Below the pieces are notes generated by a model. It made no database searches, was not told where the DNA came from, and was given only the letters and a program-made list of their open reading frames with translations. Positions 1 to 13,409 of a DNA stretch of 13,409 nt are shown one piece after another. The stretch is from Candidatus Hermodarchaeota archaeon. Its GTDB lineage: Archaea > Asgardarchaeota > Hermodarchaeia > Hermodarchaeales > Hermodarchaeaceae. Made by a program: the position numbers and the translations under genes. The stretch lies in assembly GCA_016839805.1 (NCBI GenBank), contig JAEOTO010000026.1, positions 1 through 13,409 of the forward strand, written 5' to 3'. Numbering within the stretch: position 1 is the first letter of the stretch; each line of letters starts with the position of its first letter.

Positions 1-345
1 AGGGCCTGGGCCTTTGTCTCAGTGCCCATCTCCCGGTTCCCGCTTTCACGGCCGGTACTGATCGATGGCTTGGTGGGCCGTTACCCCACCAACAACCTAA
101 TCAGCCGCTGACCCATCCTCAGGCGCGTACTCCACATGCGGAGCTGGCTTTGGACGGCAAACCATTCCAGGCAGTGCCGTCTATCGGGGATTAGCCCCAG
201 TTTCCCGGGGTTGTCCCCGTCCGGAGGGTAGGTTGTCAACGTGTTACTGAGCGGTTCGCTACTCCTGAACATAGTTACAGGCGTGCAACTTGCATATCTT
301 AGTCTCATCCCTATAGCAGTCGGGTCTGGCAGGATCAACCAGTGT
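1..345 (-). rRNA. rrs: 16S (SSU) rRNA, 5' portion; continues beyond the window start
   Basis: Reverse complement reads ACACTGGTTGATCCTGCCAGACCCGACTGCTAT...GCTCAGTAACACGT...CCCCGGGAAACTGGGGCTAATCCCCGATAG...GGTGGGGTAACGGCCCACCAAGCC...ACTGAGACAAAGGCCCAGGCCCT, all archaeal 16S hallmarks. 5' end placed by analogy to ATTCCGGTTGATCC (+/- a few nt). Confidence 0.98.
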
Positions 346-680
346 TTGGGTTGGTCGCAGTGAGTGGTATGGAATCCGATTCCCTGTTGAAGGGAATGGA
401 TTGGCGGTGGGTGTGAGTGGGTGCACTAGTTCGGAAATTTTGTGTTGCCTGTCAGTTGAGGTGGACGTATCTTCGACCCAAGAGTCCAGGGCCCAGGTGG
501 GCTTGCTGGTTTGCTCGGGCCAGCATCTGGTGTTCCGCAGCGTGAAAACAATCCCTCATAGACAAGGCAATCAATGCCCGTTGCTCAGGATTACTATGCC
601 AGTGAAGGCTGCGGTGACGGAGGTGTTGTTTGCCCCGTTGCTGTAAGAAGCGAGTATGAGGCAACCAATCTCGCGCCAAG
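346..680 (-). other. pre-16S rRNA leader (5' ETS)
   Basis: Non-coding interval between the TATA box and the mature 16S 5' end, with several hairpins (e.g. 373-402, 504-525). The upstream boundary is inferred from TATA spacing. Confidence 0.65.
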
Positions 681-702
681 ATAGCTTAAGGATGTTCAGG
701 GG

Positions 703-710
703 TTTAAAAA
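703..710 (-). promoter_or_regulatory. TATA box of the rRNA promoter
   Basis: TTTTTAAA on the minus strand just downstream of the 724..1632 stop codon; similar TTTTTAA-C-rich context occurs before tRNA-Ala and tRNA-Glu. Confidence 0.65.
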
Positions 711-723
711 TGTGTCGGGTTCC

Positions 724-1632
724 TTAGGAAAACAGCATCAATAAGAGGAGAAGCAAGGTGGCAAGTAAGGCGACGTTGGTGATAATGATGGTGGTGAGGG
801 CGGCTTTACGCATGGCAATCCGTTTGGTATGGATTACGGCTTGGGTGTAAATCCAAAGCGTCCAGGTGAGGCAGAGGAAGAGAAACAGAAACGTCACTAA
901 GGGGAAGCTGGCAAAGAAGGGGGCGCCAATCAGGCGAATGAGGGCATAGAGACCGATGGGCAGCCAGGCATAGACAGTGGCGGCAAAGAGGGGACGCATG
1001 CCTTGCTCAGTCGGGTAGCGAAACCGGGTGATGCCTTCGGTGGCTACGGTGACAAGGAGCCACGAACCAAGGAAGCTGAGGGCTGGAAGATAGATGGATA
1101 CTAGGTAAAGGTCCAGGGGCAGGAATCCGATTAAAAAGAGGGGGACCAGGGTAAAGAGATAGGCAATGGCGGCGAGGGTAATGAGGGATTCAAAGATGAG
1201 GTGGTCGGATCGGTTGTTTAAATATCGGAATAAGGGTGCGAAGCCGAGGTAGTAAGTGAGTTGTCGGAGACGAGGATGTTGGACTGTTGGGCTAGGGGGG
1301 GCGGTGCTTGGCGTAATATCTGTGGCTTGGTTGAGGAACGTAGCGGCTAGGCGTCCGAGGGCTGTGATTTGGTAGATGCGTTCTTTGCTTTGGGTGAGTA
1401 GGGGGGCATCTGCGGTCATGAGTTGTTCAAGATGAAAATAGAGGGTGCCGGGTTCGATGTGGAAGGCATCCCGGAGGTCACTGTAGCTGGCTTCTCCACG
1501 TTCGTTGACAAAGCGGATGAGTTTTCGCCGAAGAGGGTGTCCCAGATTCCGGAACAAGACGGCTTCAGCTGGCGTTTCCTTCTCGGCGTCAGTAAATACG
1601 GGTGTTGCAGGCGGCGGGTTCTTGGATGCCAT
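724..1632 (-). CDS. ArsR-like winged-HTH domain fused to a multi-pass (Yip1-like) membrane domain; putative membrane-bound transcription regulator
   Basis: N-terminal LGHPLRRKLIRFV...SYSDLRDAFHIEPGTLYFHLEQL...YQITALG is a typical ArsR/HTH_20 pattern. A Pro/Thr linker is followed by ~5 hydrophobic helices ending W..WIYTQAV..TKRIAMRKAA, resembling Yip1/DUF1282. Confidence 0.8.
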   Translation of the reverse strand: MASKNPPPATPVFTDAEKETPAEAVLFRNLGHPLRRKLIRFVNERGEASYSDLRDAFHIEPGTLYFHLEQLMTADAPLLTQSKERIYQITALGRLAATFLNQATDITPSTAPPSPTVQHPRLRQLTYYLGFAPLFRYLNNRSDHLIFESLITLAAIAYLFTLVPLFLIGFLPLDLYLVSIYLPALSFLGSWLLVTVATEGITRFRYPTEQGMRPLFAATVYAWLPIGLYALIRLIGAPFFASFPLVTFLFLFLCLTWTLWIYTQAVIHTKRIAMRKAALTTIIITNVALLATLLLLLLMLFS

Positions 1633-1720
1633 GGCTTGAAGGTATAAATTCGAGTTAAAATTGTTGTGGATTTTGAGTTCGAGTGGGGTCGAACTCCCCT
1701 GTTTCTATAATGATAGAACT

Positions 1721-1732
1721 GAAAGTATATAT
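1721..1732 (+). promoter_or_regulatory. BRE + TATA box for the surface-protein gene
   Basis: GAAAG-TATATAT upstream of the 1794/1806 start. Confidence 0.6.
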
Positions 1733-1793
1733 GTTCATTTAATCTAACGATGGATAACGCAAATTTACTGCGCAAATAACAAATACCACAAAA

Positions 1794-2762
1794 GTGATTA
1801 AAAAAATGAGAACAACACTCCTTTCACGGGCAACACTCGGGCTCACAGTCATAGCCATCAGTCTTCTGATGGTATCCAGTATACCTGTGATGGCTGCGAC
1901 CAACGGTCAGGGCATTCAATACCAATATGATTCACCAATGAAACAAGTAACTCTGACAACTCCTGCCATCGTCGTTCGGGTTTCCGCTGGTGAGAATGTA
2001 CCCCACTTCATGTTCTGGGACCCCACATTCATTGATCCAAATACCCGATTGACCTATCATGTGCAATTCTTTCAACTTATCGAATTCAACGACACCAATG
2101 ACGATGGAACCTATACCAACGGCACCGACCATGTAGTCGCCCCAATCCTGGGACTAGGACGCGTCATGTGGGCCTTTAGTGGCTTCGAAACCGAACAAGA
2201 CGGTCCCACCGTAACCGCCGTCCACTTTAACTATACTCTCGCAGATGTTCAAGGTCCAGGGTATCCAGACCTGTATATGGAATTACGCTGTCACATCAAC
2301 ACGACGAATAACAATCAACTCAAATTCGACATTGTAATTTCTGGTTGGCCTTGGACACACGATGACACCTTTCTTGCACTTCGCTGGGATCTGATGGTGC
2401 AAAGTCCCGGCACACACTCCTATCGCCACGCCTATCAACATCGCTACGAAAACAACACCTACTCCTTTGAAGGGGCGTTCTTCCAGTACAAACGCTCAGC
2501 AAACGTTGGCAATGATACGACCCAAGTAACAAGCAACTACGAAGATCATCCGGAAAAAACCGTGTTCTACCTCGTTTATCCCAACTTCGGCAATGAACTC
2601 CTGGTTCACGATCCAATTGTTGGGTTAGACGGGTCCTTAATCCCACCAAACAACATTCTCCCCCTTCTCATCGTAATTGGGGCAGGCGCACTAGCCTGTG
2701 TTGTTATCGCCGCAACCATCTGGATTCGACGGCGAAATGTCACACCTATTCCTCCCGAATAG
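1794..2762 (+). CDS. Secreted beta-rich glycoprotein with a C-terminal membrane anchor (type I membrane protein), function unknown; start may be ATG 1806
   Basis: Signal peptide (RATLGLTVIAISLLMVSSIPVMA/A), several N-x-T sequons (NDT, NGT, NYT, NTT, NNT), C-terminal TM ILPLLIVIGAGALACVVIAATIWI followed by RRR. Confidence 0.85.
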   Translation: MIKKMRTTLLSRATLGLTVIAISLLMVSSIPVMAATNGQGIQYQYDSPMKQVTLTTPAIVVRVSAGENVPHFMFWDPTFIDPNTRLTYHVQFFQLIEFNDTNDDGTYTNGTDHVVAPILGLGRVMWAFSGFETEQDGPTVTAVHFNYTLADVQGPGYPDLYMELRCHINTTNNNQLKFDIVISGWPWTHDDTFLALRWDLMVQSPGTHSYRHAYQHRYENNTYSFEGAFFQYKRSANVGNDTTQVTSNYEDHPEKTVFYLVYPNFGNELLVHDPIVGLDGSLIPPNNILPLLIVIGAGALACVVIAATIWIRRRNVTPIPPE

Positions 2763-2798
2763 CCTTTCAGCTGGGAGGATAGGTTCTTTTCTTTTTTT
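2744..2798 (+). terminator. Stem-loop plus oligo-T terminator
   Basis: ACCTAT-T-CCTCCC (2744-2756) pairs with GGGAGG-ATAGGT (2773-2784), followed by TCTTTTCTTTTTTT; lies between convergent genes. Confidence 0.6.
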
Positions 2799-2818
2799 AA
2801 TAGTGGGATTAATATGGC

Positions 2819-3670
2819 TTATTTGATGGCTTGGGCGAGGAATTGAATGAAGATATTGGTGAAGCGATGGCGACGTGTGAGTTGTTCGAGTTCGTTGACT
2901 TGTTCTTTGAGTCGAGCAATGCGATCGTCCACCCAATGGGAGCCGCGACGGAACCGCATGGCTTCCACGCGGGGGATTTCTTCTTCATACGCTGCTGAAA
3001 GCCGCTTTTTAGCAAAGGAAACCCATTTCGTATCTTGTTCAGTGAAAATGAGGAAGCGGGGGTCGAAGGATTGGACCTTTAGTCGTGCTTCATGCAACAG
3101 GTGGCGTAAATTGCCCCCTGATAACTTGGTTTCAAACCCGATTTCGCCTTCGCGGCGATAATGGGCATCCAAATGGGGTAACCCGTAGGCTCGGCAGATC
3201 GAGTAATCTGGTTCCAATGCAACAAACCGACCTTCCGATTCAAGGTGCCGGGCGAGTTCTCGCAGGCCTTCTTGCTTGAGATCTGCAATTACATGACGGC
3301 TATAGATGAGGTTAAAGGTTTCATCCTTGGGGATTGTGCCTTTCTCCACGACGTCTCCTGCAAAAAAGCGGATGCGAGCTCCATACTCGAATAGCTGTGC
3401 CAACTGGTTTGCACACGCAGTGAGAGCGGGATTGATATCAATCCCAACGACTTCACCTTCTGGCACCTTACTTGCCAATTCTAATGTGGTGCGTCCCACC
3501 CCACATCCAACATCTAAAATGCGCATATCTGGACGAATTTCAAACTCTTCAAAGTAGGTTCCATAATAGGGAACACTCTCCCAGAGATAGTGCGCGAGGG
3601 CCCCTCGAGGGTCTAAAATGCGGTGTACGGCATTCCGAATACGAGGTGACTCCAATCCCGGTAACGTCAC
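2819..3670 (-). CDS. Class I SAM-dependent methyltransferase, substrate unknown
   Basis: Motif I RILDVGCGVG, post-I VVGIDIN, motif II-like ETFNLIYSRHV, motif III-like LESEGRFVALE; GTG start with GGTGA SD upstream. Confidence 0.9.
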   Translation of the reverse strand: MTLPGLESPRIRNAVHRILDPRGALAHYLWESVPYYGTYFEEFEIRPDMRILDVGCGVGRTTLELASKVPEGEVVGIDINPALTACANQLAQLFEYGARIRFFAGDVVEKGTIPKDETFNLIYSRHVIADLKQEGLRELARHLESEGRFVALEPDYSICRAYGLPHLDAHYRREGEIGFETKLSGGNLRHLLHEARLKVQSFDPRFLIFTEQDTKWVSFAKKRLSAAYEEEIPRVEAMRFRRGSHWVDDRIARLKEQVNELEQLTRRHRFTNIFIQFLAQAIK

Positions 3671-3768
3671 GATGATTCACCCAACCGCTTTCTCAATGGT
3701 AACGGCGTCTACACTTAAGATTTCTTCGGCACACGGCTATAAAGCCTTACACTACCCTGGCGTAACAC

Positions 3769-3775
3769 TTTTTAA
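3769..3775 (+). promoter_or_regulatory. TATA box for tRNA-Ala
   Basis: TTTTTAA ~35 nt upstream of the tRNA 5' end. Confidence 0.6.
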
Positions 3776-3809
3776 CCGCCCTGCAGCGCTGAACATCACA
3801 CATCCATGT

Positions 3810-3884
3810 GGGGTGGTAGATCAGCGGTAGATCGCGGGTCTTGCACACCCGAGGCCCCGGGTTCAAATCCCGGCCACTCCACCA
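3810..3884 (+). tRNA. tRNA-Ala(UGC), CCA encoded
   Basis: Acceptor GGGGTGG/CCACTCC with the G3:U70 Ala determinant; D stem GATC/GATC; anticodon arm CGGGT-CT TGC AC-ACCCG; T arm CCGGG-TTCAAAT-CCCGG; ACCA end. Confidence 0.97.
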
Positions 3885-3919
3885 CATCCCCAAAAACCCT
3901 AGACAAACAGTTGCAAAGA

Positions 3920-3926
3920 TTTTTAA
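3920..3926 (+). promoter_or_regulatory. TATA box for the tRNA-Glu/tRNA-Leu transcript
   Basis: CAAAGA-TTTTTAA ~35 nt upstream of tRNA-Glu; tRNA-Leu follows after only 21 nt with no TATA of its own. Confidence 0.6.
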
Positions 3927-3960
3927 CCCACCACAGCCAGCCCTTCCTCACAAATCTCAT

Positions 3961-4038
3961 GCCCTGATAGTGTAGCCAGGTCAATCATCATGGGCTTTCG
4001 CCCCGTGGACCCGGGTTCGAATCCCGGTCAGGGCACCA
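3961..4038 (+). tRNA. tRNA-Glu(UUC), CCA encoded
   Basis: Acceptor GCCCTGA/TCAGGGC; anticodon arm ATGGG-CT TTC GC-CCCGT; T arm CCGGG-TTCGAAT-CCCGG; ACCA end. Confidence 0.96.
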
Positions 4039-4059
4039 CCCCCACCCACAACAACCCAT

Positions 4060-4179
4060 GCGGGAGTAGCTAAGCTTGGCCAAAGGTGCTGGATTTAGGC
4101 TCCAGTCGTGTAGACGTTCCTGGGTTCAAAAGCGGTTTTAACGAGAGTAGAATAGCTGAAATTCCCAGCTCCCGCACCA
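4060..4179 (+). tRNA. tRNA-Leu(UAG) with a 32-nt intron (4131-4162) in the T loop at position 59/60
   Basis: Acceptor GCGGGAG/CTCCCGC-ACCA; anticodon arm CTGGA-TT TAG GC-TCCAG; long variable arm; removing 4131-4162 restores CTGGG-TTCAAAT-CCCAG. Confidence 0.95.
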
Positions 4180-4186
4180 TTTTTTT
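4180..4186 (+). terminator. Oligo-T terminator after tRNA-Leu
   Basis: T7 run immediately after the CCA. Confidence 0.6.
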
Positions 4187-4230
4187 AAGTTGGGAACCGG
4201 AGCTTTCTTTAAATGCCATTTCTTTACTAA

Positions 4231-4695
4231 GTGGTTGGTGGATTGCTGGTGTCGGTGAAGCCCATTGGCGATTTATTGATGGAAATGAAGAAGCGTTACG
4301 ATAAGGACCAGCAGGGGTGGCGGGTGCTCTCGGGGCGAGCAGACCGTGGGTTGTATGATACGTTTATTTTGCACCGGGACCGGCTCTGGCAGATGAAAAC
4401 CGAACCGGTGAATCCCTTTGAAGTCATCGGCGTGGGTAGCGTCCATCGGAGGGTTGATGAGAGTCTGCATAATCGGATTATGCAGGAAGGGAAACCTTTC
4501 TTTTTCCAAATCGCCGCTCCTCAACGGAAGGGGGTTGTCCTGGCCCAAGGGATTCAACGGTACTCTGATGACTCCACGAGTCGACTGCGTATGGTGATGT
4601 CGGATCGTCAAGAAGAACTCGATCGAGAACTCCAGACGGCGGTGCGGTCAATGAGCTTGAAACGCTTCCCCGAACGACACGCTTTGTATGGGTAA
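4231..4695 (+). CDS. Conserved archaeal hypothetical protein; true start probably GTG 4249 or TTG 4243
   Basis: Fills the gap between tRNA-Leu and tRNA-Asn, with TTTAAAT TATA (4208-4214) and a GGTGG SD. The pattern KKRYD...GWRVL.G....G.YD.FI......WQ.KT...NPFEV.GVG recalls an uncharacterised archaeal family (from memory). Confidence 0.75.
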   Translation: MVGGLLVSVKPIGDLLMEMKKRYDKDQQGWRVLSGRADRGLYDTFILHRDRLWQMKTEPVNPFEVIGVGSVHRRVDESLHNRIMQEGKPFFFQIAAPQRKGVVLAQGIQRYSDDSTSRLRMVMSDRQEELDRELQTAVRSMSLKRFPERHALYG

Positions 4696-4716
4696 TTCAT
4701 GGGTAAAAGAGGGAAG

Positions 4717-4825
4717 TGGCGCCGAGGAGCGGATTCGAACCGCTGACCTAGAGGTTAACAGCTTCGGACCGCCACCAACGGATGGTGGATGGGCTCCCGC
4801 TCTTACCGGGCTAAGCCACCTCGGC
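4717..4825 (-). tRNA. tRNA-Asn(GUU) with a 31-nt intron (4763-4793) in the anticodon stem at position 30/31
   Basis: Acceptor GCCGAGG/CCTCGGC-GCCA; T arm AGCGG-TTCGAAT-CCGCT; removing the intron gives anticodon arm GGAGG-CT GTT AA-CCTCT. Confidence 0.95.
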
Positions 4826-4854
4826 ACTTGAGCTTCTGCCCATTTTCATTGCTT

Positions 4855-4870
4855 ATTTTAAACTCTTTCC
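4855..4870 (-). promoter_or_regulatory. BRE + TATA box for tRNA-Asn
   Basis: Minus strand GGAAAGAG-TTTAAAAT, ~30 nt upstream of the tRNA. Confidence 0.6.
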
Positions 4871-4920
4871 ATCCGTTGGATTCAAAGAATAGACTGCAAC
4901 GACCATAACGAGCCAAATAC

Positions 4921-5502
4921 TTAATCTGTAGCATCAGGTCCGAGGGGATGCCAAAGTTCCAAGGCTTTACGTCGTTTCAATTGCCGACGTTGCGTATTCA
5001 AGTACCGGTTCACCGTGGAATGCTCTGCCCCGCGCAGTAAGCGCACAATGGCGTTCACAGCGACTTGCTGACTTTCTACCTCACCTATCACGCTAATGGT
5101 GTTGCCCATGACCGCCACAAAGGTATCTGTGAGTTCTTCGATGTTTCGCCGCGTCTTTCCGCCTTGCCCTATCACCCGACCTTTCAATCGGCGAATCTGA
5201 TTTGGACTGCTTCCGAACTCTTCGAGGTTAATGATTCGAAGGTAGACATCATCATCAAGTAATGCAAAGGCGCGTTGCGGACTAAATCCTCGACCAATCG
5301 CTTGCGTAATGTCACGTGCTTTCCAGACCGCTAAGGGATCTTCGGTTTCCTCCTTCGATTCTAAAATCACAAGCCCATCTGTGCTATCAATGGTGATATC
5401 TGTCGCGGTGATTTGTTCGAGTTGTCGTTTGATTTCTCCATTGGGACCAATTAGCACAGCTATCCGTGCCTTGGGAATACGTAGACGGGCATCGGCTTTC
5501 AT
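4921..5502 (-). CDS. dim2: KH-domain pre-16S rRNA processing protein Dim2/Pno1
   Basis: IPKARIAVLIGPNGE (KH1), AIGRGFSPQRAFALL, KGRVIGQGGKTRRNIEELT (KH2), LLRGAEHSTV; ATGA overlap with rio1. Confidence 0.95.
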   Translation of the reverse strand: MKADARLRIPKARIAVLIGPNGEIKRQLEQITATDITIDSTDGLVILESKEETEDPLAVWKARDITQAIGRGFSPQRAFALLDDDVYLRIINLEEFGSSPNQIRRLKGRVIGQGGKTRRNIEELTDTFVAVMGNTISVIGEVESQQVAVNAIVRLLRGAEHSTVNRYLNTQRRQLKRRKALELWHPLGPDATD

Positions 5503-6269
5503 TTGTAATCACCTCGACGAATCGCTGTGATGGTCTCGTCTAGGTCGAGCCGGGGGATGTCAAAACGGTCGAAGTAGGTGAGGATGTTACGGATATCGCG
5601 TTCAAAGAACATCTCACTGTGCGGGTGGTCCAAGACGACGGCTTGGGAAATATCAATGAGGACCGGTCCCTTCCAGAGCATGACATTGTATTCACTAAGA
5701 TCTGCGTGAACTAATGATGCCTCATGATAGAGCGTGGACACGGCTTTGAGGATTGTTTGACGGGTAGGTTCTGGTTCTTCAGGGGCCTCTTGGTGCATTG
5801 TTGGAGATGGAAACCCCTCTTCACCAATGAATTCCATCACCAAGATGTTTCGTTGTACATGAATCGGCTGGGGAACGCGAACACCAGCATTCTGTGCCCG
5901 TTGAAGATTCTTAAACTCCTTAGATGCCCATGCGGCGATGAGTCCGCTCCGGGCTTTGGGAATTCGCGAAAAGCGGGGATCGCCTTCCAGGTAGAGAGTT
6001 ATGCGTTTGAAGTTGAAAGTGGCTATCCGGTAAATCTTGATTGCCACATCAGTACCGTCGGGTTGAATGGCCCAGTAAACGTTAGCTTCCTTCCCCGTAG
6101 AAATCACGCCATTAACTTCGTCGAGAAGCCCCTTGTTAAACATGTGGTAGAGGGTGAGAAGTGTCTTTGTGTCGAACACCGATTCGATGACTTGACGGTC
6201 CTCTGAGCGTTTAATCCGCATTCGAGCCTTATCAAGACGTTCTTCCAAGCGATCAAGTTTATCAGACAC
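5499..6269 (-). CDS. rio1: RIO1-family atypical kinase/ATPase
   Basis: ISTGKEANVY P-loop, VAIKIYR, W..KEFKNL, LVHADLSEYNV catalytic loop, IDISQAV, RDIRNI; GTG start with a GGAGATGA SD-like sequence. Confidence 0.97.
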   Translation of the reverse strand: MSDKLDRLEERLDKARMRIKRSEDRQVIESVFDTKTLLTLYHMFNKGLLDEVNGVISTGKEANVYWAIQPDGTDVAIKIYRIATFNFKRITLYLEGDPRFSRIPKARSGLIAAWASKEFKNLQRAQNAGVRVPQPIHVQRNILVMEFIGEEGFPSPTMHQEAPEEPEPTRQTILKAVSTLYHEASLVHADLSEYNVMLWKGPVLIDISQAVVLDHPHSEMFFERDIRNILTYFDRFDIPRLDLDETITAIRRGDYK

Positions 6270-6372
6270 TTACTTCATCTCCTGCATGCAACATCGACAT
6301 CATCAACGATTCTGCGAGATGGTTAGCGCTTATCCGCGATTGATAAAGTTTGTCATCCTCTGCAAAGAAAGA

Positions 6373-7074
6373 TCATTTTTGATGCTGGAACCGTTGCGTG
6401 GGCAGATCAAGGGCAATTTCGAGACTGTGAATAAGCATGCCTACAATAGTAGTGGTTGGTAAGGGTTCGGGATCAAAGCTCATCTGGTGGTCAACGAGTT
6501 TAGTTAAAGTCGCCACAGGGGTTCCATGAGGAAAGCCGCCGACGAGTACAACCGGCTTCTCTTCGGAGATAAGTTGTTCGGCGAAATGGACAGGACTGGT
6601 GGGAGTGCCACTATGAGAGAGTAGGTAAATGGTACTTGGAGAAATTCCTTGGAGATAGGTCTTCAAGGGTCCTTGATGTACTTGCATTAGGGGAGGTCCC
6701 TTAATGGGCACTCGTTGAGAAACAAGTAATTGTTCCACGAGGCCAATAAATCGGGCTATCCGACGTGGTAAGCGGGTTCCAGGGGCAATTTGAATAATCG
6801 AACCGCTATAAATGTGAATGAACACTTCTAACTGGCCCTCTCGTGCTAAGACGCTATCCAGTGCAGTTAAGATGCTGCGATGAGCAATGTCTGGTCGTCC
6901 ACGCTTCTCTGAGTCAGGAAGCGTCTGTAAAGCCTTTGAATGAAGAGCTTCATCAAGGAGAATCTGGTGGGGTGGTTTTCCTCTGAGCTTGGCACTGGTA
7001 ACGACACTGATGTCTTGCATGATTTCATCTGGTACTAATTCTAATGCCGTCTCAACAAGTCCAAGAACTAACAT
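6373..7074 (-). CDS. nep1: Nep1/Emg1 SPOUT-class SSU rRNA pseudouridine N1-methyltransferase
   Basis: ETALELVP, LLD...H, KRGRPDIAH..L.ALDS.L, RLPR...RFIGL.EQL, VGGFPHG motifs. Confidence 0.95.
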   Translation of the reverse strand: MLVLGLVETALELVPDEIMQDISVVTSAKLRGKPPHQILLDEALHSKALQTLPDSEKRGRPDIAHRSILTALDSVLAREGQLEVFIHIYSGSIIQIAPGTRLPRRIARFIGLVEQLLVSQRVPIKGPPLMQVHQGPLKTYLQGISPSTIYLLSHSGTPTSPVHFAEQLISEEKPVVLVGGFPHGTPVATLTKLVDHQMSFDPEPLPTTTIVGMLIHSLEIALDLPTQRFQHQK

Positions 7075-7124
7075 CTCACAGATATTCTTCTCAACAAAGT
7101 AAAAATGAGTTTGTTCAAGCGATC

Positions 7125-7481
7125 CTATTCGTCAATTTTGAGATATCCACGCCTTTCAAGCCAAGCGGCTTCGCCCTGGGAATAGCGCCACGTGATGTCA
7201 CCGCGTTTATCCGTTTGAAAATCCCAGGGTGCAACAAGAACTACGTCGCCTTCTCGGATCCAGGTTCGTTTTTTCATGGTTCCCCTAATTCGGCAGAGTC
7301 GTGCTTTACCATCGGCACATTTAACGCGTACCCGGTCATAACCAAGAAGTTGAACGGCAATTCCGAGAACTTCGCCTTCTCGAGGAATCCGGACGCGAAT
7401 TACTTCGCCGTCTTGGCTCGACTGACCTTTGAGTCGACGACGTGACCTGCCTGATTTTCCTTTTCGACGGGGTTTAGACAT
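7125..7481 (-). CDS. eif1a: Translation initiation factor 1A (aIF1A)
   Basis: RVRIPREGEVLG...LLG..RVRVKCADGK.RLCRIRGTMKKRTWIREGDVVLVAPWDFQ...RGDI.WRY; AGGAG SD at 7489-7493. Confidence 0.98.
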   Translation of the reverse strand: MSKPRRKGKSGRSRRRLKGQSSQDGEVIRVRIPREGEVLGIAVQLLGYDRVRVKCADGKARLCRIRGTMKKRTWIREGDVVLVAPWDFQTDKRGDITWRYSQGEAAWLERRGYLKIDE

Positions 7482-7523
7482 GGTAATACTCCTAATTTGA
7501 ATGGGCTACAACTAGAAGACGAG

Positions 7524-7532
7524 TATATAAAA
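7524..7532 (-). promoter_or_regulatory. Internal TATA box for aIF1A
   Basis: TTTTATATA on the minus strand right after the NMD3 stop codon. Confidence 0.65.
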
Positions 7533-7536
7533 TTGC

Positions 7537-8631
7537 TCACTGACGGTGACTTGGCAGCTCATCAATCTCAACGTCGGGAAGAAGTACCAAACTATCATCC
7601 CATTCAATGGCGGAGACCATAGATCCAACCTGTAATGGTTTTGATGGATCGGGATAATCATAGATTGTGAAATCCCTCTGACTCATCAACTGGTAAACAT
7701 CGTCCTCCAAAGAAATCACTTGATAGGAATGAATTTGATCGTTGAGGGATTGGGCGTCAATTTCTGCGAGTTCTTTAGGACTGAGGTTTTGTTTTTGTCC
7801 GGATTTTAGGTTTGTAAGAGTATAACGACCATTCCGTAGACCTGTAATCATGAATGGCTGTTGCATGTACTCAATTACATCCCGAATTTCAAAGGGGGGA
7901 AATCGCAAGGCATAGGTTTCCCGCGTTAATGTCTTACCATCGCGAGTCCGCCCTGCTAATTTACTGGAGACTTTGAGGAGTAATCCAAAGTGTGTAGCCA
8001 GATTTTTAGCAAGACTTCGGCAGAACCGCCCTGAAATACATTTGATGTCAAAACCCTCGCGCTTTTCTGTGAATTTTAACGTGGATTTCGGTAAATCATG
8101 ATCGTTCAGTCGTTGAGTGATATATGCTGCAATTTGGTTCCCCTGAGCGGGTGAAAGCTTCCCTGATGCGGTTCGAACCTGAATGGTAGCTTCGAAATAG
8201 CCTCCAGCAGTCTGTTTGCATTGACCACAAAGAACTAGTGTAATAGGGAGAGTGAGTTGTTGTTTTTCTCGATAGTTCAGAGTGTGGATTGTAGCCGTTA
8301 TATCTACATCCACTTTCTTTGTTTTTGAAAGGGGGGTTCCAGAGGAATCAACAAGTTCCACTTCGAAAGTTGCAGGCTCACTAGGATCAAAGAGAGGATC
8401 AAGAAGGTCACAAACCATGTTATAAACGTGGTCAGCATCCGGAACGGATCCTTGGTGTACCCATCGACCACTAGTGTAGTAGGCGTTGCATCGCGGACAC
8501 ACTTTGGCCTCGGGAGGACGACGAAGTACAATGAGCGGATGTTGCTCAAAATAGCATTGAGCGCAAAACCCTTTCACAAAAGGTTGAGCTTTAGTCTGAT
8601 CTTTTCCACATTTTGGGCAGCTACGGGTCAT
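7537..8631 (-). CDS. nmd3: NMD3-family large-subunit biogenesis factor
   Basis: Four CxxC pairs (CPKC, CAQC, CPRC, CGQC), GGYFEATIQVR signature, C-terminal SH3/OB-like region; adjacent to DUF424 as is usual in archaea. Confidence 0.92.
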   Translation of the reverse strand: MTRSCPKCGKDQTKAQPFVKGFCAQCYFEQHPLIVLRRPPEAKVCPRCNAYYTSGRWVHQGSVPDADHVYNMVCDLLDPLFDPSEPATFEVELVDSSGTPLSKTKKVDVDITATIHTLNYREKQQLTLPITLVLCGQCKQTAGGYFEATIQVRTASGKLSPAQGNQIAAYITQRLNDHDLPKSTLKFTEKREGFDIKCISGRFCRSLAKNLATHFGLLLKVSSKLAGRTRDGKTLTRETYALRFPPFEIRDVIEYMQQPFMITGLRNGRYTLTNLKSGQKQNLSPKELAEIDAQSLNDQIHSYQVISLEDDVYQLMSQRDFTIYDYPDPSKPLQVGSMVSAIEWDDSLVLLPDVEIDELPSHRQ

Positions 8632-8637
8632 GGTAGT

Positions 8638-8949
8638 TCATTTCGTTACAACTACTTGCGCATGGGGAACATTCTGAATGCGAATCACGCCACGTTCATG
8701 AATAAGTTGAGCCTTCAACGCTTCTTGCACAATACATTCGCCCACGATATTCGCGATAGTGGCTTGTTCTATTGCGGCAATCCCTTCCTCAACAGGGACA
8801 AGCTTGCCTTTGTAAAAGGTTTCACTGATATGGATGCACCTGTCACCTTCTTCAAAGGATTGCCCTAGAATATCCTGGTCACAAATCGCAACGATGTATT
8901 CCCCCTCACGATGAATTCGATTCAAATAGACGCGCATAATCATCCACAC
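8638..8949 (-). CDS. DUF424 family protein
   Basis: IVAICDQDILG..F, ISETFYKG, ATIANIVG..IV..A, I.NVPHAQ motifs. Confidence 0.92.
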   Translation of the reverse strand: MWMIMRVYLNRIHREGEYIVAICDQDILGQSFEEGDRCIHISETFYKGKLVPVEEGIAAIEQATIANIVGECIVQEALKAQLIHERGVIRIQNVPHAQVVVTK

Positions 8950-8972
8950 CTAGACTCTCTCGATAAGCCTCA

Positions 8973-9557
8973 TTAACCCTTCAAAGGAGTACGTCCACCA
9001 CATGCACTACACACTAACATGAGAAGGCGATCTTCCCGGCGAATTTCAGTATCCGGTCGTTGGCATACAGGGCATACGACAAACTCATCGGTATATTTGG
9101 CTACAAGATCTTCTAATGCTCGTGAGGTGAATCGTCCATTGAACATGGCTTGAGCACCTTGGAGTTCTCCTGCAGTTGCTAGCTCTTGTGCAAGAAATCG
9201 GATGAGATGCTTTGGATCACGACGGAGCGTGTCGGTAATATCCTTGAAATTACGAATAATTGTCCGAGAACCCTGGATGAACGAGTCGACCTGCGGCAGT
9301 TGAAATCGAGGCTGATCAAAGACTTCCGGAGGAATTTGGTCACGTGCGCGTTTTAGAAGGGCTTCGTAATCGTCGGTGTGAGGTGTGGTTGTAGTGGTTT
9401 TTGCTTTTGCCGATTTAGGTTTGGTCTTTGCTTTAGCTTTTGCACTGGATTTGGGCTTTGCCTTCGATTTGGTCTTTGGCGCAGCTTTGGGTGCCGATTT
9501 GGCTTTCTGACTCTTGGTGGCTTTCTTTGTTGGCTTCTTGGTGGTTTTTGGTGGCAC
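8973..9557 (-). CDS. eif2b: Translation initiation factor 2 beta subunit (aIF2-beta) with a ~60-aa Lys/Ala/Pro/Thr-rich N-terminal extension
   Basis: YEALLKRA..QIP, RF.LP, G.RTIIRNF..I...LRRDPKHL..FL..ELATAG, zinc ribbon CPVC.RPDT...CSACG; GTG start with a GAGG SD. Confidence 0.96.
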   Translation of the reverse strand: MPPKTTKKPTKKATKSQKAKSAPKAAPKTKSKAKPKSSAKAKAKTKPKSAKAKTTTTTPHTDDYEALLKRARDQIPPEVFDQPRFQLPQVDSFIQGSRTIIRNFKDITDTLRRDPKHLIRFLAQELATAGELQGAQAMFNGRFTSRALEDLVAKYTDEFVVCPVCQRPDTEIRREDRLLMLVCSACGGRTPLKG

Positions 9558-9723
9558 GTGTTTTCGCCTCTCATTATTGCACCCAATTCAAGGGATTGCT
9601 GCTTCATAAACCATCTGTTTTACGTACGCAAAGTTCAGCAGGTTATGAAAAATGCCTAGTTACTTGGGTGCTTCAGGATTAGGTGGTGTGAACCCATAGT
9701 TACACAAAAGGATTTGGTTTGAT

Positions 9724-10494
9724 TTAGGATTTCTTGTAGCGATGAATTTCAGGTTCGTACACAAGGCCCTCGCTAAGTAAATCAATCAGAACTTGTTCCA
9801 CAACTTCCTCTTCTGCTCCTCCTGTAGCATCAAGGATTTGTTCGAACCGAGCGCCGCCTTCAGAATCATATTTTTCAATGGTCTGTATTACGAGGCGTCG
9901 TAGTTCTGGAGAGGGAACCGGGCCCTCTTCTTCTACTCTTCTGTCTAAGGTTGCAGTAGCATTATGCCATACGCCGGGTTCGAGATCCATTTGTTTTGAA
10001 GGCTGAGGAGGTTCTTCACTTGCTGCTAAATCGAGACTGGTGGTTTCGACTTGTCCTTCTAACATATGGGGCTCTCTTCGTGAATTGGCCAGCTCTAGAA
10101 GTCGAATGGTTTCCCAATTTGGATCTTCTAATTTTCGGATGATTTCACCATTAATATACGCTTCACCCTGAAAGCTGCGCACTTTGCCCACAGCTAAAAC
10201 TAGGTCTCCTACGCGAATATCAGCGAGTTTTGCACTCTGTTCGTCCCACATCATTACACGAATTACACCAGTGCCATCATCCAAAGTGATGGCTGCAAAC
10301 TTCTTCCCCCCCTGGTCTAATCGTTCCTGTGGCGTTGTATATCGATCAACAACCGTTGCAATGATGTTAACTCGACTAATTTGACCAAGATAGGTAGTGA
10401 CTCCAACGACATTTCCTCGTTCATTAGCAATTAATTCGCCATCTTGAATATCCTGAATAGCTAACTTCGCGGCGGTGGAGCGCTTCGAAAACAT
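9724..10494 (-). CDS. RPA32/RPA2-like OB-fold ssDNA-binding protein with a C-terminal winged helix
   Basis: SRVNIIATVVD, ITLDDGTGVIRV..W, GDLVLAVGKVRSF.GE.YI..EII.K OB fold; acidic/Pro linker; LIDLLSEGLVYEP winged-helix tail. Confidence 0.85.
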   Translation of the reverse strand: MFSKRSTAAKLAIQDIQDGELIANERGNVVGVTTYLGQISRVNIIATVVDRYTTPQERLDQGGKKFAAITLDDGTGVIRVMMWDEQSAKLADIRVGDLVLAVGKVRSFQGEAYINGEIIRKLEDPNWETIRLLELANSRREPHMLEGQVETTSLDLAASEEPPQPSKQMDLEPGVWHNATATLDRRVEEEGPVPSPELRRLVIQTIEKYDSEGGARFEQILDATGGAEEEVVEQVLIDLLSEGLVYEPEIHRYKKS

Positions 10495-10527
10495 ACCGAA
10501 TCGAACCCTATTCTTTTACCTTCCTTA

Positions 10528-10535
10528 TTATATAA
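10528..10535 (-). promoter_or_regulatory. TATA box for the RPA32-like gene
   Basis: TTATATAA 33 nt upstream of ATG 10494. Confidence 0.55.
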
Positions 10536-10607
10536 TCTTCAAAAAGCTTCTTCAACGCGAACTTAAACTGCAAGATAAGCACGAACCTGTGACAAAAACG
10601 ATGATAT

Positions 10608-13409
10608 TTACGTGGGAAAGTCAACGGCTTCATCAGGTTGGCTAGGGTTTGGGAATGGTGACGCATTAACAGGAATAAAGCAGCCCTCATCATGAAGTTG
10701 TTCAAGAGCATTAGCGATATCGAATTTCTTCTTGGATCCATACTTTTCTACAGCTGCCACAAAAAGCTGTGGGAGGAAGAGACGCCCCTCTTTATTCGCA
10801 AGTTTTACAGCTAAAGCGTAGATCTTCCGTGGAAAACCTCGCGAAGGCGGTTTTGCGCATTCATAGGCTAGAAGTAATTCGCCGTGAAAACTTGCTTCAA
10901 CGATTTCTGAGGCGGGATCAAACATGTCAATACGCCCGTCAAACCTCTCTAATTCTGATCCAAATCGGGTTTCAAACTGAGTCGTGAAGCTAGCCAGTGA
11001 TTCAGTAATTTCTTCACTAGGTGATGAGTCTAAAATCAGAACACTCACAATGTGGGTACCCTCACGGAGACTGAGATGTAAATCCTTGTAGTGAATGTCT
11101 CGTAGCTGCGACTCTCGGTCAACCTCCCCTGAGAGTTCGCTATAGAATGAATTGACAGCCGAAATAAATCCTGCTAGTAACGTACTAGGCATCTCGCCCC
11201 CAGCAAAATCATAGGTAAATATCGGCAACCCAGTTTTCGAATATGTAACAAAAAGAGCCCGCAAATCCATTAAGCCCATAATCCGTTGTGCCCACATCCC
11301 CCCACTCTCTTCTAACTTCCTTTGTCGGGCTAACTTACTGGGACGAACACGTTTTACATAAATTACAGACCCAATGATGATAATAAGGACGATTAAAACA
11401 AGCAATGGCCAGTAGGCTAAAAGGAGTTCAGCCCACCACGGCATATCTGTCAAGGGTAGGATCGCTTCCGATGCAATCATGAATATAGTGGCAATTTCAC
11501 AGGCACCATTGTATTCTGCTGATGCCCACAAATAGGGGTCAGTGTTCCCATTATCCCACACATAACTTGGAATTTGGACGAAAAGAAGGCCCAAGCCAAA
11601 CACATCAGTGGTAATCGCCTCTGAAGCCAAAGAGACACTTGTACCGTTCGCATATTGCACCCAGACAACAAGGTCAACATTTCCTCCCACTATGACCGAA
11701 CCATTCTCCAAGGTCAAACCAATAGTTACTGCGATTTGAGTGCCAGGATAAATAATGGTAGGAAGCTGAAGGGTCAAAATCGGTGTTAACTTAGCTAAAA
11801 CCTCAAGGGTCAAACTAATGGTTTGATTCTGATGGTTCGTCCGCTGAGCAAAAACATCCACTGCATACGAAGTCGGGGTTATTCCGGTTAAGTTCAAAAT
11901 GAGCCGGTACACACCATTGCCCTGAGACGTCAAAGGATAGGTAGTAGTTTGAAAGACTGCCCAAACGGTCGCTGAACCAACACCAAACCCCGTATTAGTA
12001 TTGATAAAGGTCACATCAAAGACAAGAGTTTCGTTTTCGTATTGAGAGGGAGTAAAATCGTTATTTTCTGGGGTAAGAGATGTGGCCCAAACAAGATGGA
12101 AGGTTTGTGTAGTGAATTGAATTACATAATTTTGAACACTAATGTTGAATGTAATTGTCCACCAACCGACTGGTGCACCCGTAGTGGAGCAGCGGACTGT
12201 ATAGGTCCCATCCAGATTATCAAGAAAACTAATTGTTGACCAGTTCCCCTGGACCACCGCACCAACGAGTCCCTGTGGGGTAAAGTCTTGGTATGTCAAC
12301 TCAATTATGAAATCAGTATCATAGACAACAGGAGCGGAGGAAAGCACCTGCACAGAAAGTTGGGAGGGGCGAATTAACACATCGACGAGATCCTGATAAA
12401 TTTGGGGTTCATATCCTGCAAGGGAAATGGTCAACGTGATATTGTAGGTGCTATCACCACCACTGGTATTCAAAATAAATTGCAAATGATAGGTTCCATC
12501 CAACAAATCAAACGTTATGAATGGGGTAAAGGGTGTCCCATTCAAAAGACACGAAACGCTGGCTCCAACAATTCCTGTCCCATCCGATTGTTTTTGATAG
12601 GTCAACGTTACATTGAAGGCTTCTCCCCCATTCACACTCGGAGGAGCACTTCCTGAAATTGTCGTTGCTTCTCCTTGCACTGTAAGTGTAACCAACAAAG
12701 TGGTATCTTGATAATAAAAACCAGGTTTTGACGCATTAACAACAAGGTTATGGGTTCCTACGCCTAGAACCGTTCCCTGCAAAAGAACCGTATAGTTTCC
12801 CCCTCCTTCTTCGGATAACACACTAAAGAAAGGACCGGGATCCGAAATATTCACTTGCGCCCCTTCGATGCCTCCCTCTCCTAACGGCGTTAACACTGAA
12901 TAATTCACTTCTAAAGTCACACTTTCAGTATAACTAATGGAAAGAGAAGTCCAGTTCGCCACTAATTGTGTTTTCGACCACAATGTAAGCGATACGGTAG
13001 TCGTGGCAGAGGCATAACCTTGTCGATCCGCTTTTACCAGACCTACATTGACACCACGACCTAATCCCATCAGCGAAGTATCGATAGAGCGTTCATAATA
13101 GCCAGATCCAACATCAAATAGGGAATATGTCGACATGCCGAAGGTGACATTGACTTCATCGGCGTTTTCGATACCTGCGATATTATACGTATCCTCGTAG
13201 TAGACGCGGATATTGACGTTATCGCCAATGAGACTTGTATAGGGACCAAGATTATCAGATACTGTCGTCGGGTAGACCAGATGTACGCTGCTGAGTCCCA
13301 CGCCGACGTGGTAGCTGTTATTCCACACGACCTCACAGCGCATTGTAACATTAGTTATCAGGTATGTATTGGGTGTGAAAGATGGAAAGGTCAGTAATCC
13401 AGCAACTGG
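10608..13409 (-). CDS. Large single-pass surface protein: Ig-like repeats + TM + cytoplasmic longin-like domain + probable winged helix; 5'-truncated by the window
   Basis: The frame stays open for 22 codons upstream of ATG 13343 (PVAGLLTFPSFTPNTYLITNVT) to the window edge. It has ~100-aa beta repeats with G.Y motifs, TM LLLAYWPLLVLIVLIIIIGSVIYV-KR, then SKTGLPIF...LLAGFISAVNSF..E...FETRF..EL..FDG....F, typical of Asgard longin-like domains. Confidence 0.85.
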   Translation of the reverse strand, partial: PVAGLLTFPSFTPNTYLITNVTMRCEVVWNNSYHVGVGLSSVHLVYPTTVSDNLGPYTSLIGDNVNIRVYYEDTYNIAGIENADEVNVTFGMSTYSLFDVGSGYYERSIDTSLMGLGRGVNVGLVKADRQGYASATTTVSLTLWSKTQLVANWTSLSISYTESVTLEVNYSVLTPLGEGGIEGAQVNISDPGPFFSVLSEEGGGNYTVLLQGTVLGVGTHNLVVNASKPGFYYQDTTLLVTLTVQGEATTISGSAPPSVNGGEAFNVTLTYQKQSDGTGIVGASVSCLLNGTPFTPFITFDLLDGTYHLQFILNTSGGDSTYNITLTISLAGYEPQIYQDLVDVLIRPSQLSVQVLSSAPVVYDTDFIIELTYQDFTPQGLVGAVVQGNWSTISFLDNLDGTYTVRCSTTGAPVGWWTITFNISVQNYVIQFTTQTFHLVWATSLTPENNDFTPSQYENETLVFDVTFINTNTGFGVGSATVWAVFQTTTYPLTSQGNGVYRLILNLTGITPTSYAVDVFAQRTNHQNQTISLTLEVLAKLTPILTLQLPTIIYPGTQIAVTIGLTLENGSVIVGGNVDLVVWVQYANGTSVSLASEAITTDVFGLGLLFVQIPSYVWDNGNTDPYLWASAEYNGACEIATIFMIASEAILPLTDMPWWAELLLAYWPLLVLIVLIIIIGSVIYVKRVRPSKLARQRKLEESGGMWAQRIMGLMDLRALFVTYSKTGLPIFTYDFAGGEMPSTLLAGFISAVNSFYSELSGEVDRESQLRDIHYKDLHLSLREGTHIVSVLILDSSPSEEITESLASFTTQFETRFGSELERFDGRIDMFDPASEIVEASFHGELLLAYECAKPPSRGFPRKIYALAVKLANKEGRLFLPQLFVAAVEKYGSKKKFDIANALEQLHDEGCFIPVNASPFPNPSQPDEAVDFPT

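Follow-up and report, generated by a model that had tools for sequence, protein, structure and literature searches.

A lysine-rich, predicted disordered N-terminal tail on initiation factor aIF2-beta in one family of Hermodarchaeota

An aIF2-beta gene in a Candidatus Hermodarchaeota genome opens with codons for some 60 residues, rich in lysine, ahead of the helix at which archaeal proteins of this kind typically begin. Is this extension a translated part of the factor, how is it distributed among archaea, and what might it do in an Asgard archaeon, given that eukaryotic eIF2-beta also carries a lysine-rich N-terminal tail? The original prediction had offered two readings, namely a precursor or analogue of the eukaryotic K-box region, or a tail that binds RNA or forms condensates. 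The DNA analysed, called the window throughout, is a stretch of 13,409 nucleotides (NCBI GenBank assembly GCA_016839805.1, contig JAEOTO010000026.1, positions 1 to 13,409 of the forward strand). The gene lies in a co-directional row on the minus strand (4921-10494) that encodes an OB-fold protein, aIF2-beta, DUF424, NMD3, aIF1A, Nep1/EMG1, Rio1 and a KH protein of the Krr1/Pno1 type, a context of translation and ribosome biogenesis. A 911-aa ORF directly upstream of the row (10608-13343, minus strand) gave no Pfam match at E<=1e-4.

Apart from its N-terminal extension, the gene product has the canonical aIF2-beta architecture, made up of a helix that binds gamma, an alpha/beta domain and a zinc ribbon (Table 1). 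The match to PF01873 (E=7.4e-34) covers profile positions 8-116 of 117, and the nearest solved chains are those of archaeal aIF2-beta, 1NEE (E=4e-46) and 2D74_B, whose alignments begin at query residue 60-63 and run through to the end. In a 57-sequence alignment the zinc-ribbon cysteines C162, C165, C183 and C186 were invariant, as were, entirely or nearly, residues Y64, L67, L68, R70 and A71 of the helix, whose conserved motif DYEALLKRA starts at residue 63. An AlphaFold model built on the same alignment placed the first helix at residues 61-73 and gave the core pLDDT values of 80-95.

Table 1. Features of the aIF2-beta gene in the window.
Feature	Position	Strand	Remarks
Whole aIF2-beta gene	8973..9557	-	194 aa plus stop; GTG start
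GTG start codon	9555..9557	-	Sole in-frame start 5' of the gamma-binding helix
Shine-Dalgarno-like GAGAGG	9567..9572	-	9 nt ahead of the GTG
In-frame TGA stop	9588..9590	-	Shuts the frame 10 codons 5' of the start
Lysine-rich N-terminal tail, aa 1-61	9375..9557	-	21 K, 0 R, 0 D/E; net charge +21
N-terminal helix, aa 61-73, DDYEALLKRARDQ	9339..9377	-	Helix in the AlphaFold model; holds beta to aIF2-gamma in solved structures
IF2B/IF5 core domain PF01873, aa 82-188, including the C4 zinc ribbon	8994..9314	-	Pfam E=7e-34

The composition reported for the extension was confirmed on translation of the ORF: residues 1-53 hold 21 lysines and no aspartate or glutamate, a TTTTT run follows at residues 54-58, and the first acidic residue is D62. 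Lysine thus makes up 34% of the tail (21/61), and the net charge, +21 over the first 61 residues, is 0 over the remaining 133. At a crude proteome lysine frequency of 5.1%, taken from the long ORFs of the genome, the probability of at least 21 lysines in 53 residues is 5e-14. Residues 1-60 had pLDDT values of 46-57 and no secondary structure in the AlphaFold model, and the tail is accordingly predicted to be intrinsically disordered. It is not a clean tandem array; the sole repeat found by Tandem Repeats Finder was a weak, short one at 9512-9555.

The same composition recurs in the orthologues. Across 54 orthologous tails the make-up was 32% K, 19% T, 14% A, 12% P, 11% S and 3.6% D+E; K, T, A, P and S account for about 87% of these terminal, low-complexity sequences. 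Acidic residues are absent from the tail of the window (0/61) and have a median of 2.9% in the orthologue tails. As had been noted at first reading, the lysines are dispersed rather than gathered into poly-K runs, the longest run being 2 in the window and at most 4 among the 54 orthologues. Their spacing is far from random, with even distances enriched, odd distances depleted and adjacent lysines (KK) the most depleted of all; for distances of 1, 2 and 4 the z scores in the orthologue tails were -18, +7 and +10, values that are overstated by the relatedness of the sequences.

Several observations bear on whether the tail is made as protein. The original prediction held that no Met, Val or Leu lies between the GTG at 9557, which has a Shine-Dalgarno sequence, and the helix, and the lack of any other start was upheld: apart from that codon, no ATG, GTG or TTG lies in frame between the upstream TGA and the helix, and the Shine-Dalgarno-like element reads GAGAGG. 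From stop to stop the open frame has room for 204 aa, compared with the 194 aa of the ORF. A non-AUG start was found in 17/17 family genomes read (loci L001-L017, L039), GTG in 13/13 of one genus (g1) and TTG in 4/4 of a second (g2), and each of the 17 kept a Shine-Dalgarno sequence 8-9 nt upstream, GAGGCGA in g1 and GGAGG in g2. The first residues are also conserved, as V/M-P-[PS]-K-x-T-K-K and, in g2, as M-P-A-K-P-K. In some 60 database homologues, 166-218 aa in length, the helix is preceded by 33-85 residues rich in K, T, S, A and P. The length of the tail varies, from 34 to 74 residues across the 17 family genomes read and from 33 to 82 aa among about 54 orthologous tails, and through these indels the reading frame is kept. 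In five close pairs, dN/dS was 0.15-0.47 for the tail and 0.02-0.15 for the core. Since start and Shine-Dalgarno sequence are conserved, the frame survives indels and dN/dS lies below 1, the tail appears to be translated, as originally proposed; it is also under purifying selection, with a constraint weaker than that on the core. Its sequence turns over fast and its length varies, so that whatever function it has would rest on composition and might be slight.

Some close relatives are represented in databases by entries of 133-136 aa that lack the tail (P0052, P0054, P0059, P0229). In some orthologues an in-frame ATG is present two or three codons before the helix (L009, L013, L039), and one 90%-identity cluster unites forms of 133-135 aa that start from an internal ATG with a tailed form of 189 aa (P0054, P0229, P0228). 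That both forms occur in a single cluster suggests that the short entries reflect different gene calls at the internal ATG rather than true loss of the tail. The ATG-started forms may thus represent a gene-calling difference or, possibly, a tail-less isoform. Among sequencing runs, the whole stretch was present in the probable source run only, which is not an independent source. A contig from a second study covers 9274-9451 and differs from the window by substitutions only, and a single RNA-library contig, derived from a relative, covers only 8906-9040.

The conserved GTG or TTG start invites a purely speculative idea, that it might serve as an autoregulatory device acting on aIF2 levels, because aIF2 is itself the factor that selects start codons and the gene for its own beta subunit begins with a non-AUG codon. 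In bacteria, the IF3 gene (infC) has an AUU start that is autoregulatory. Scans for promoters and terminators with bacterial-type models returned nothing useful. An antisense ORF over the tail-coding region (9378-9659, plus strand, 93 aa) has a translation rich in F, L, C and G; it mirrors the AAR-rich codons and is not considered a gene.

The distribution of the tail was determined in a phylum-wide survey of 379 genomes from 32 families, in which the window's family (f1) was the only representative of its order and class; such a survey of Asgard aIF2-beta N-termini had been called for when the extension was first noticed. The tail aligned in 16/16 genomes of the family that had an aIF2-beta match. 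None of the 31 other families sampled yielded the tail; among the matches listed there, the match started at about residue 55-63. A few matches outside the family reach further upstream, in each case only by reading through a stop or by a weak, unconfirmed alignment. Stop-to-stop frames in the other families were mostly 137-170 aa long. Five loci with large frames were fetched; the two that were readable have no K-rich extension and carry an ATG 2-3 codons before the helix. The aIF2-beta tail therefore appears to be confined to one Asgard family among those sampled.

An exhaustive search with the core alone placed this result in a wider archaeal context. Among the best 150 archaeal aIF2-beta representatives, nearly all have their first residue no more than about 10 positions from the helix, which agrees with the earlier statement that the typical archaeal protein begins there. 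Charged N-terminal extensions occur in a few unrelated lineages, in P0092, P0140 (Thermoplasmata), P0121 (Micrarchaeia), P0171 and P0226. The extension of P0092 is 52 aa long with 19 K and no D or E, and is of the same K/T/S/A type at the same place; most of the five extensions are mixed K/E and not purely basic. The cores of these proteins are only 35-41% identical to that of the Hermodarchaeota protein. The charged extensions of these five proteins are probably independent gains.

Within the genome, the tail of aIF2-beta has company. All ORFs of the 2.31 Mb genome were scanned for 40-residue windows with >=12 Lys and <=2 Asp/Glu, and 15 ORFs passed. Together with Pfam assignments, the scan identified lysine-rich C-terminal tails on uS3, uL15, eL24 and RpoD, the last being RNA polymerase subunit D, and, besides aIF2-beta, lysine-rich N-terminal tails on uL5, eL33 and an FKBP-type isomerase. 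The ORFs that passed also include Nop5, whose C-terminus is basic, and less strict criteria brought in a Toprim protein, an eL13-HhH protein and others. When 40 relatives were searched, the uL5 and eL33 tails occurred throughout family f1 and in no other family, the same family-only pattern as that of the aIF2-beta tail. Lysine spacing is again alike: in seven other tails of the genome, which belong to independent proteins of a single genome, z scores for distances of 1, 2 and 4 were -5, +5 and +5. The aIF2-beta tail is thus one of about ten on ribosomal and RNA-handling proteins of this lineage, a generic lineage trait.

Additional observations concern individual proteins and the ribosome of this group. 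In uS3 (G000:C9:64834-65901, L031) a C-terminal acidic stretch of about 70 residues, rich in Pro and Glu, is followed by a lysine-rich one of about 85. K/R-rich low-complexity sequence was also found at the N-terminus of an HdrA/MvhD-type iron-sulfur flavoprotein (G000:C50:80489-82951, L043) and as a segment of the Toprim-domain protein (G000:C22:35446-36594, L041), and these two examples indicate that the trait is not strictly limited to ribosome-associated proteins. Within the gene row itself, the first 22 residues of aIF1A (7125-7481, minus strand, 118 aa) are strongly basic (MSKPRRKGKSGRSRRRLKGQSS); this N-terminus is Arg-rich and hence of a different flavour from the Lys/Thr/Ala/Pro type on aIF2-beta. 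No rRNA genes were present in the metagenome-assembled genome of the window. In family members, three pieces of 23S rRNA (G006:C17:203-2838, G006:C60:201-2305 and G008:C20:44859-46418) are 370-730 nt longer than their matched Rfam positions, and the extra length could represent introns or expansion segments.

What could such a tail contribute to aIF2? Structural work on the archaeal factor shows the N-terminal helix of beta as part of a rigid unit that also comprises gamma and alpha domain 3; within the initiation complex on the 30S subunit, gamma rests on rRNA helix h44 beside aIF1, and the beta core touches the elbow of the initiator tRNA (PMC5103072). A tail attached at the beta helix would thus be anchored on the rigid aIF2 unit over h44. 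Being flexible, with a maximum stretched length of about 200 A, it could come within range of rRNA, mRNA or initiator tRNA backbones. It may serve as a non-specific electrostatic tether and so increase the affinity or the on-rate of aIF2, or of the ternary complex, for the 30S subunit or for mRNA. In this capacity it would be a convergent analogue of the RNA-binding role of the K-boxes, neither their ancestor nor a docking site for eIF5 or eIF2B, and the same tether logic may apply to the tails on neighbouring ribosomal proteins. The step to an RNA tether is drawn from charge, disorder, position and the precedent of lysine-rich regions in other prokaryotic proteins (PMC6821194). We consider the complete reading, a canonical aIF2-beta with a lineage-specific, disordered polycationic tail that serves as an electrostatic RNA tether, to be the most plausible one, with a probability of roughly 0.6. 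The part of the original proposal that foresaw RNA binding is retained on these grounds as its most plausible element, and the condensate half survives only within an alternative considered below.

The tail may instead be a tolerated low-complexity expansion that has no initiation role of its own. It would then be a by-product of a lineage-wide tendency to grow lysine-rich ends at abundant RNA-associated proteins, a tendency that might be mutational or might reflect generic selection on charge or solubility. The sharing of the trait by about ten proteins, the range of tail lengths, the fast sequence turnover, the weak tandem repeat and a tail dN/dS several-fold above that of the core all fit it. 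Against this stand the retention of the tail in every family genome that has the gene (16/16), dN/dS values clearly below 1 in 5/5 close pairs, the conservation of start motif, start codon and Shine-Dalgarno sequence, and a non-random, period-2 spacing of lysines that has been maintained. On balance we regard tolerated expansion, in either its mutational or its selective form, as unlikely.

Polycationic disordered tails are commonly paired with polyanions, and the tail might accordingly dock an acidic protein, for instance a chaperone or a regulator, or drive RNA-protein condensates, in either case outside the initiation complex. Seven ORFs of the genome do encode strongly acidic stretches. 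These ORFs are without any link to aIF2-beta, however, no partner was identified, and the most abundant polyanion where aIF2 works is RNA; a role of this kind is quite improbable.

Comparison with eukaryotes bears on the remaining alternative. In eukaryotic eIF2-beta, the W2 domains of eIF5, eIF2B-epsilon and 5MP bind at three sites, each centred on a run of lysines (PMC12439599), and the K-boxes also bind RNA, in competition with the eIF5-CTD (PMC4705826). In a eukaryotic example (P0222) the lysine runs are 8, 8, 6 and 6 residues long and 29% of residues are acidic. BLASTP against this sequence gave an alignment that starts only at Y64, with no similarity in the tail, and phmmer, run against yeast eIF2-beta, extended into the tail at nothing better than the lowest posterior probability and matched hardly any letters there. 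The search for W2 partners that had been suggested was carried out, without a positive control genome, and returned no PF02020 match in the window's genome (86.7% complete) or in 18 relatives, 19 family genomes in all.

That the eIF2-beta K-box tail has its homologue or precursor here, one that docks partner factors likewise, is an idea prompted by the lysine-rich composition of the Hermodarchaeota tail, its position just N-terminal to the gamma-binding helix and its Asgard host, but it is hardly credible in view of an occurrence in 1/32 families of the phylum (379 genomes), unlike an ancestral Asgard trait, the depletion of adjacent lysines (z about -18; longest run 2, against 6-8 in eukaryotic eIF2-beta), the absence of acidic residues (0, against 29% in the eukaryotic example), the negative W2 search in 19 family genomes (again, one without a positive control), alignments to eukaryotic eIF2-beta that are significant only from the helix on, and the presence of the same tails on unrelated proteins. 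Because K-box features are missing and the distribution is restricted to a single family, homology is very unlikely, while position, charge and disorder remain shared. For the original prediction this means that the precursor half is not supported, given one family, no lysine runs and no alignable similarity, and that the analogue half stays plausible, as a proposal drawn from these shared properties. The possibility raised at the outset that K/A/P tails might decorate many proteins of this genome proved correct, with similar K/T/A/P/S tails on at least seven others, and this, too, counts against an origin of the eukaryotic K-box type.

[quoted passage not shown] We offer this version only tentatively, with the odds against it. 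If it were true, a polycationic N-terminal tail on beta would be a readily evolved solution whose first role was RNA binding, eukaryotes would only later have co-opted it for docking eIF5 and eIF2B, and the conserved non-AUG start might also feed back on aIF2 levels. The analysis removes the tempting reading of a K-box precursor preserved in an Asgard archaeon and puts a testable one in its place. It also points to a natural experiment on the effect of a basic tail on e/aIF2 in an organism with no detected W2 partner of the eIF5/eIF2B type. For annotation there is a warning: lysine-rich extensions in this group appear to be a clade trait and should not be taken, protein by protein, as eukaryote-like features. 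In Hermodarchaeota, about ten proteins of transcription and translation, aIF2-beta among them, carry polycationic tails that are predicted to be disordered and share a distinctive pattern of alternating lysines.

One of the closest known systems is canonical archaeal aIF2-beta itself (1NEE, 2D74, 3CW2/5JB3), with which the Hermodarchaeota protein shares the helix, the PF01873 domain and the C4 zinc ribbon. The solved archaeal proteins are 138-148 aa long and start a few residues before the helix; the Hermodarchaeota protein has 61 additional residues. In composition (K, A, P, T and S), predicted disorder and high positive charge, the tail appears similar to the C-terminal domain of histone H1 and to the K/A/P tails of bacterial H1-like proteins. 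Tails of the histone H1 type bind DNA in chromatin, whereas the one described here belongs to a translation factor whose place of action is the ribosome.

Lysine-rich low-complexity regions of prokaryotic ribosomal proteins, which are taken to bind nucleic acid, provide another parallel (PMC6821194). Shared features are a lysine content of at least 30%, a make-up of K, A, P, T and S, a terminal site and hosts that handle RNA; the initiation factors with low-complexity regions in that survey were mainly bacterial IF2 (PMC6821194). A search of the literature outside subscription journals found no published description of a K-rich tail on aIF2-beta. The Hermodarchaeota tail thus joins the known lysine-rich disordered tails on RNA-handling proteins, and on aIF2-beta it is apparently undescribed.

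The comparison with eukaryotes combines likeness and difference. The N-terminal tail of eIF2-beta is eukaryote-specific according to a review and is not resolved in cryo-EM structures (PMC6412873). In yeast SUI3 and human EIF2S2, the K-boxes are runs of 6-8 lysines with acidic segments between them, whereas the lysines of the Hermodarchaeota tail are dispersed with a period of 2, KK is depleted and acidic residues are absent. Both tails are nonetheless rich in lysine, and both are followed immediately by the helix through which beta is anchored on gamma.
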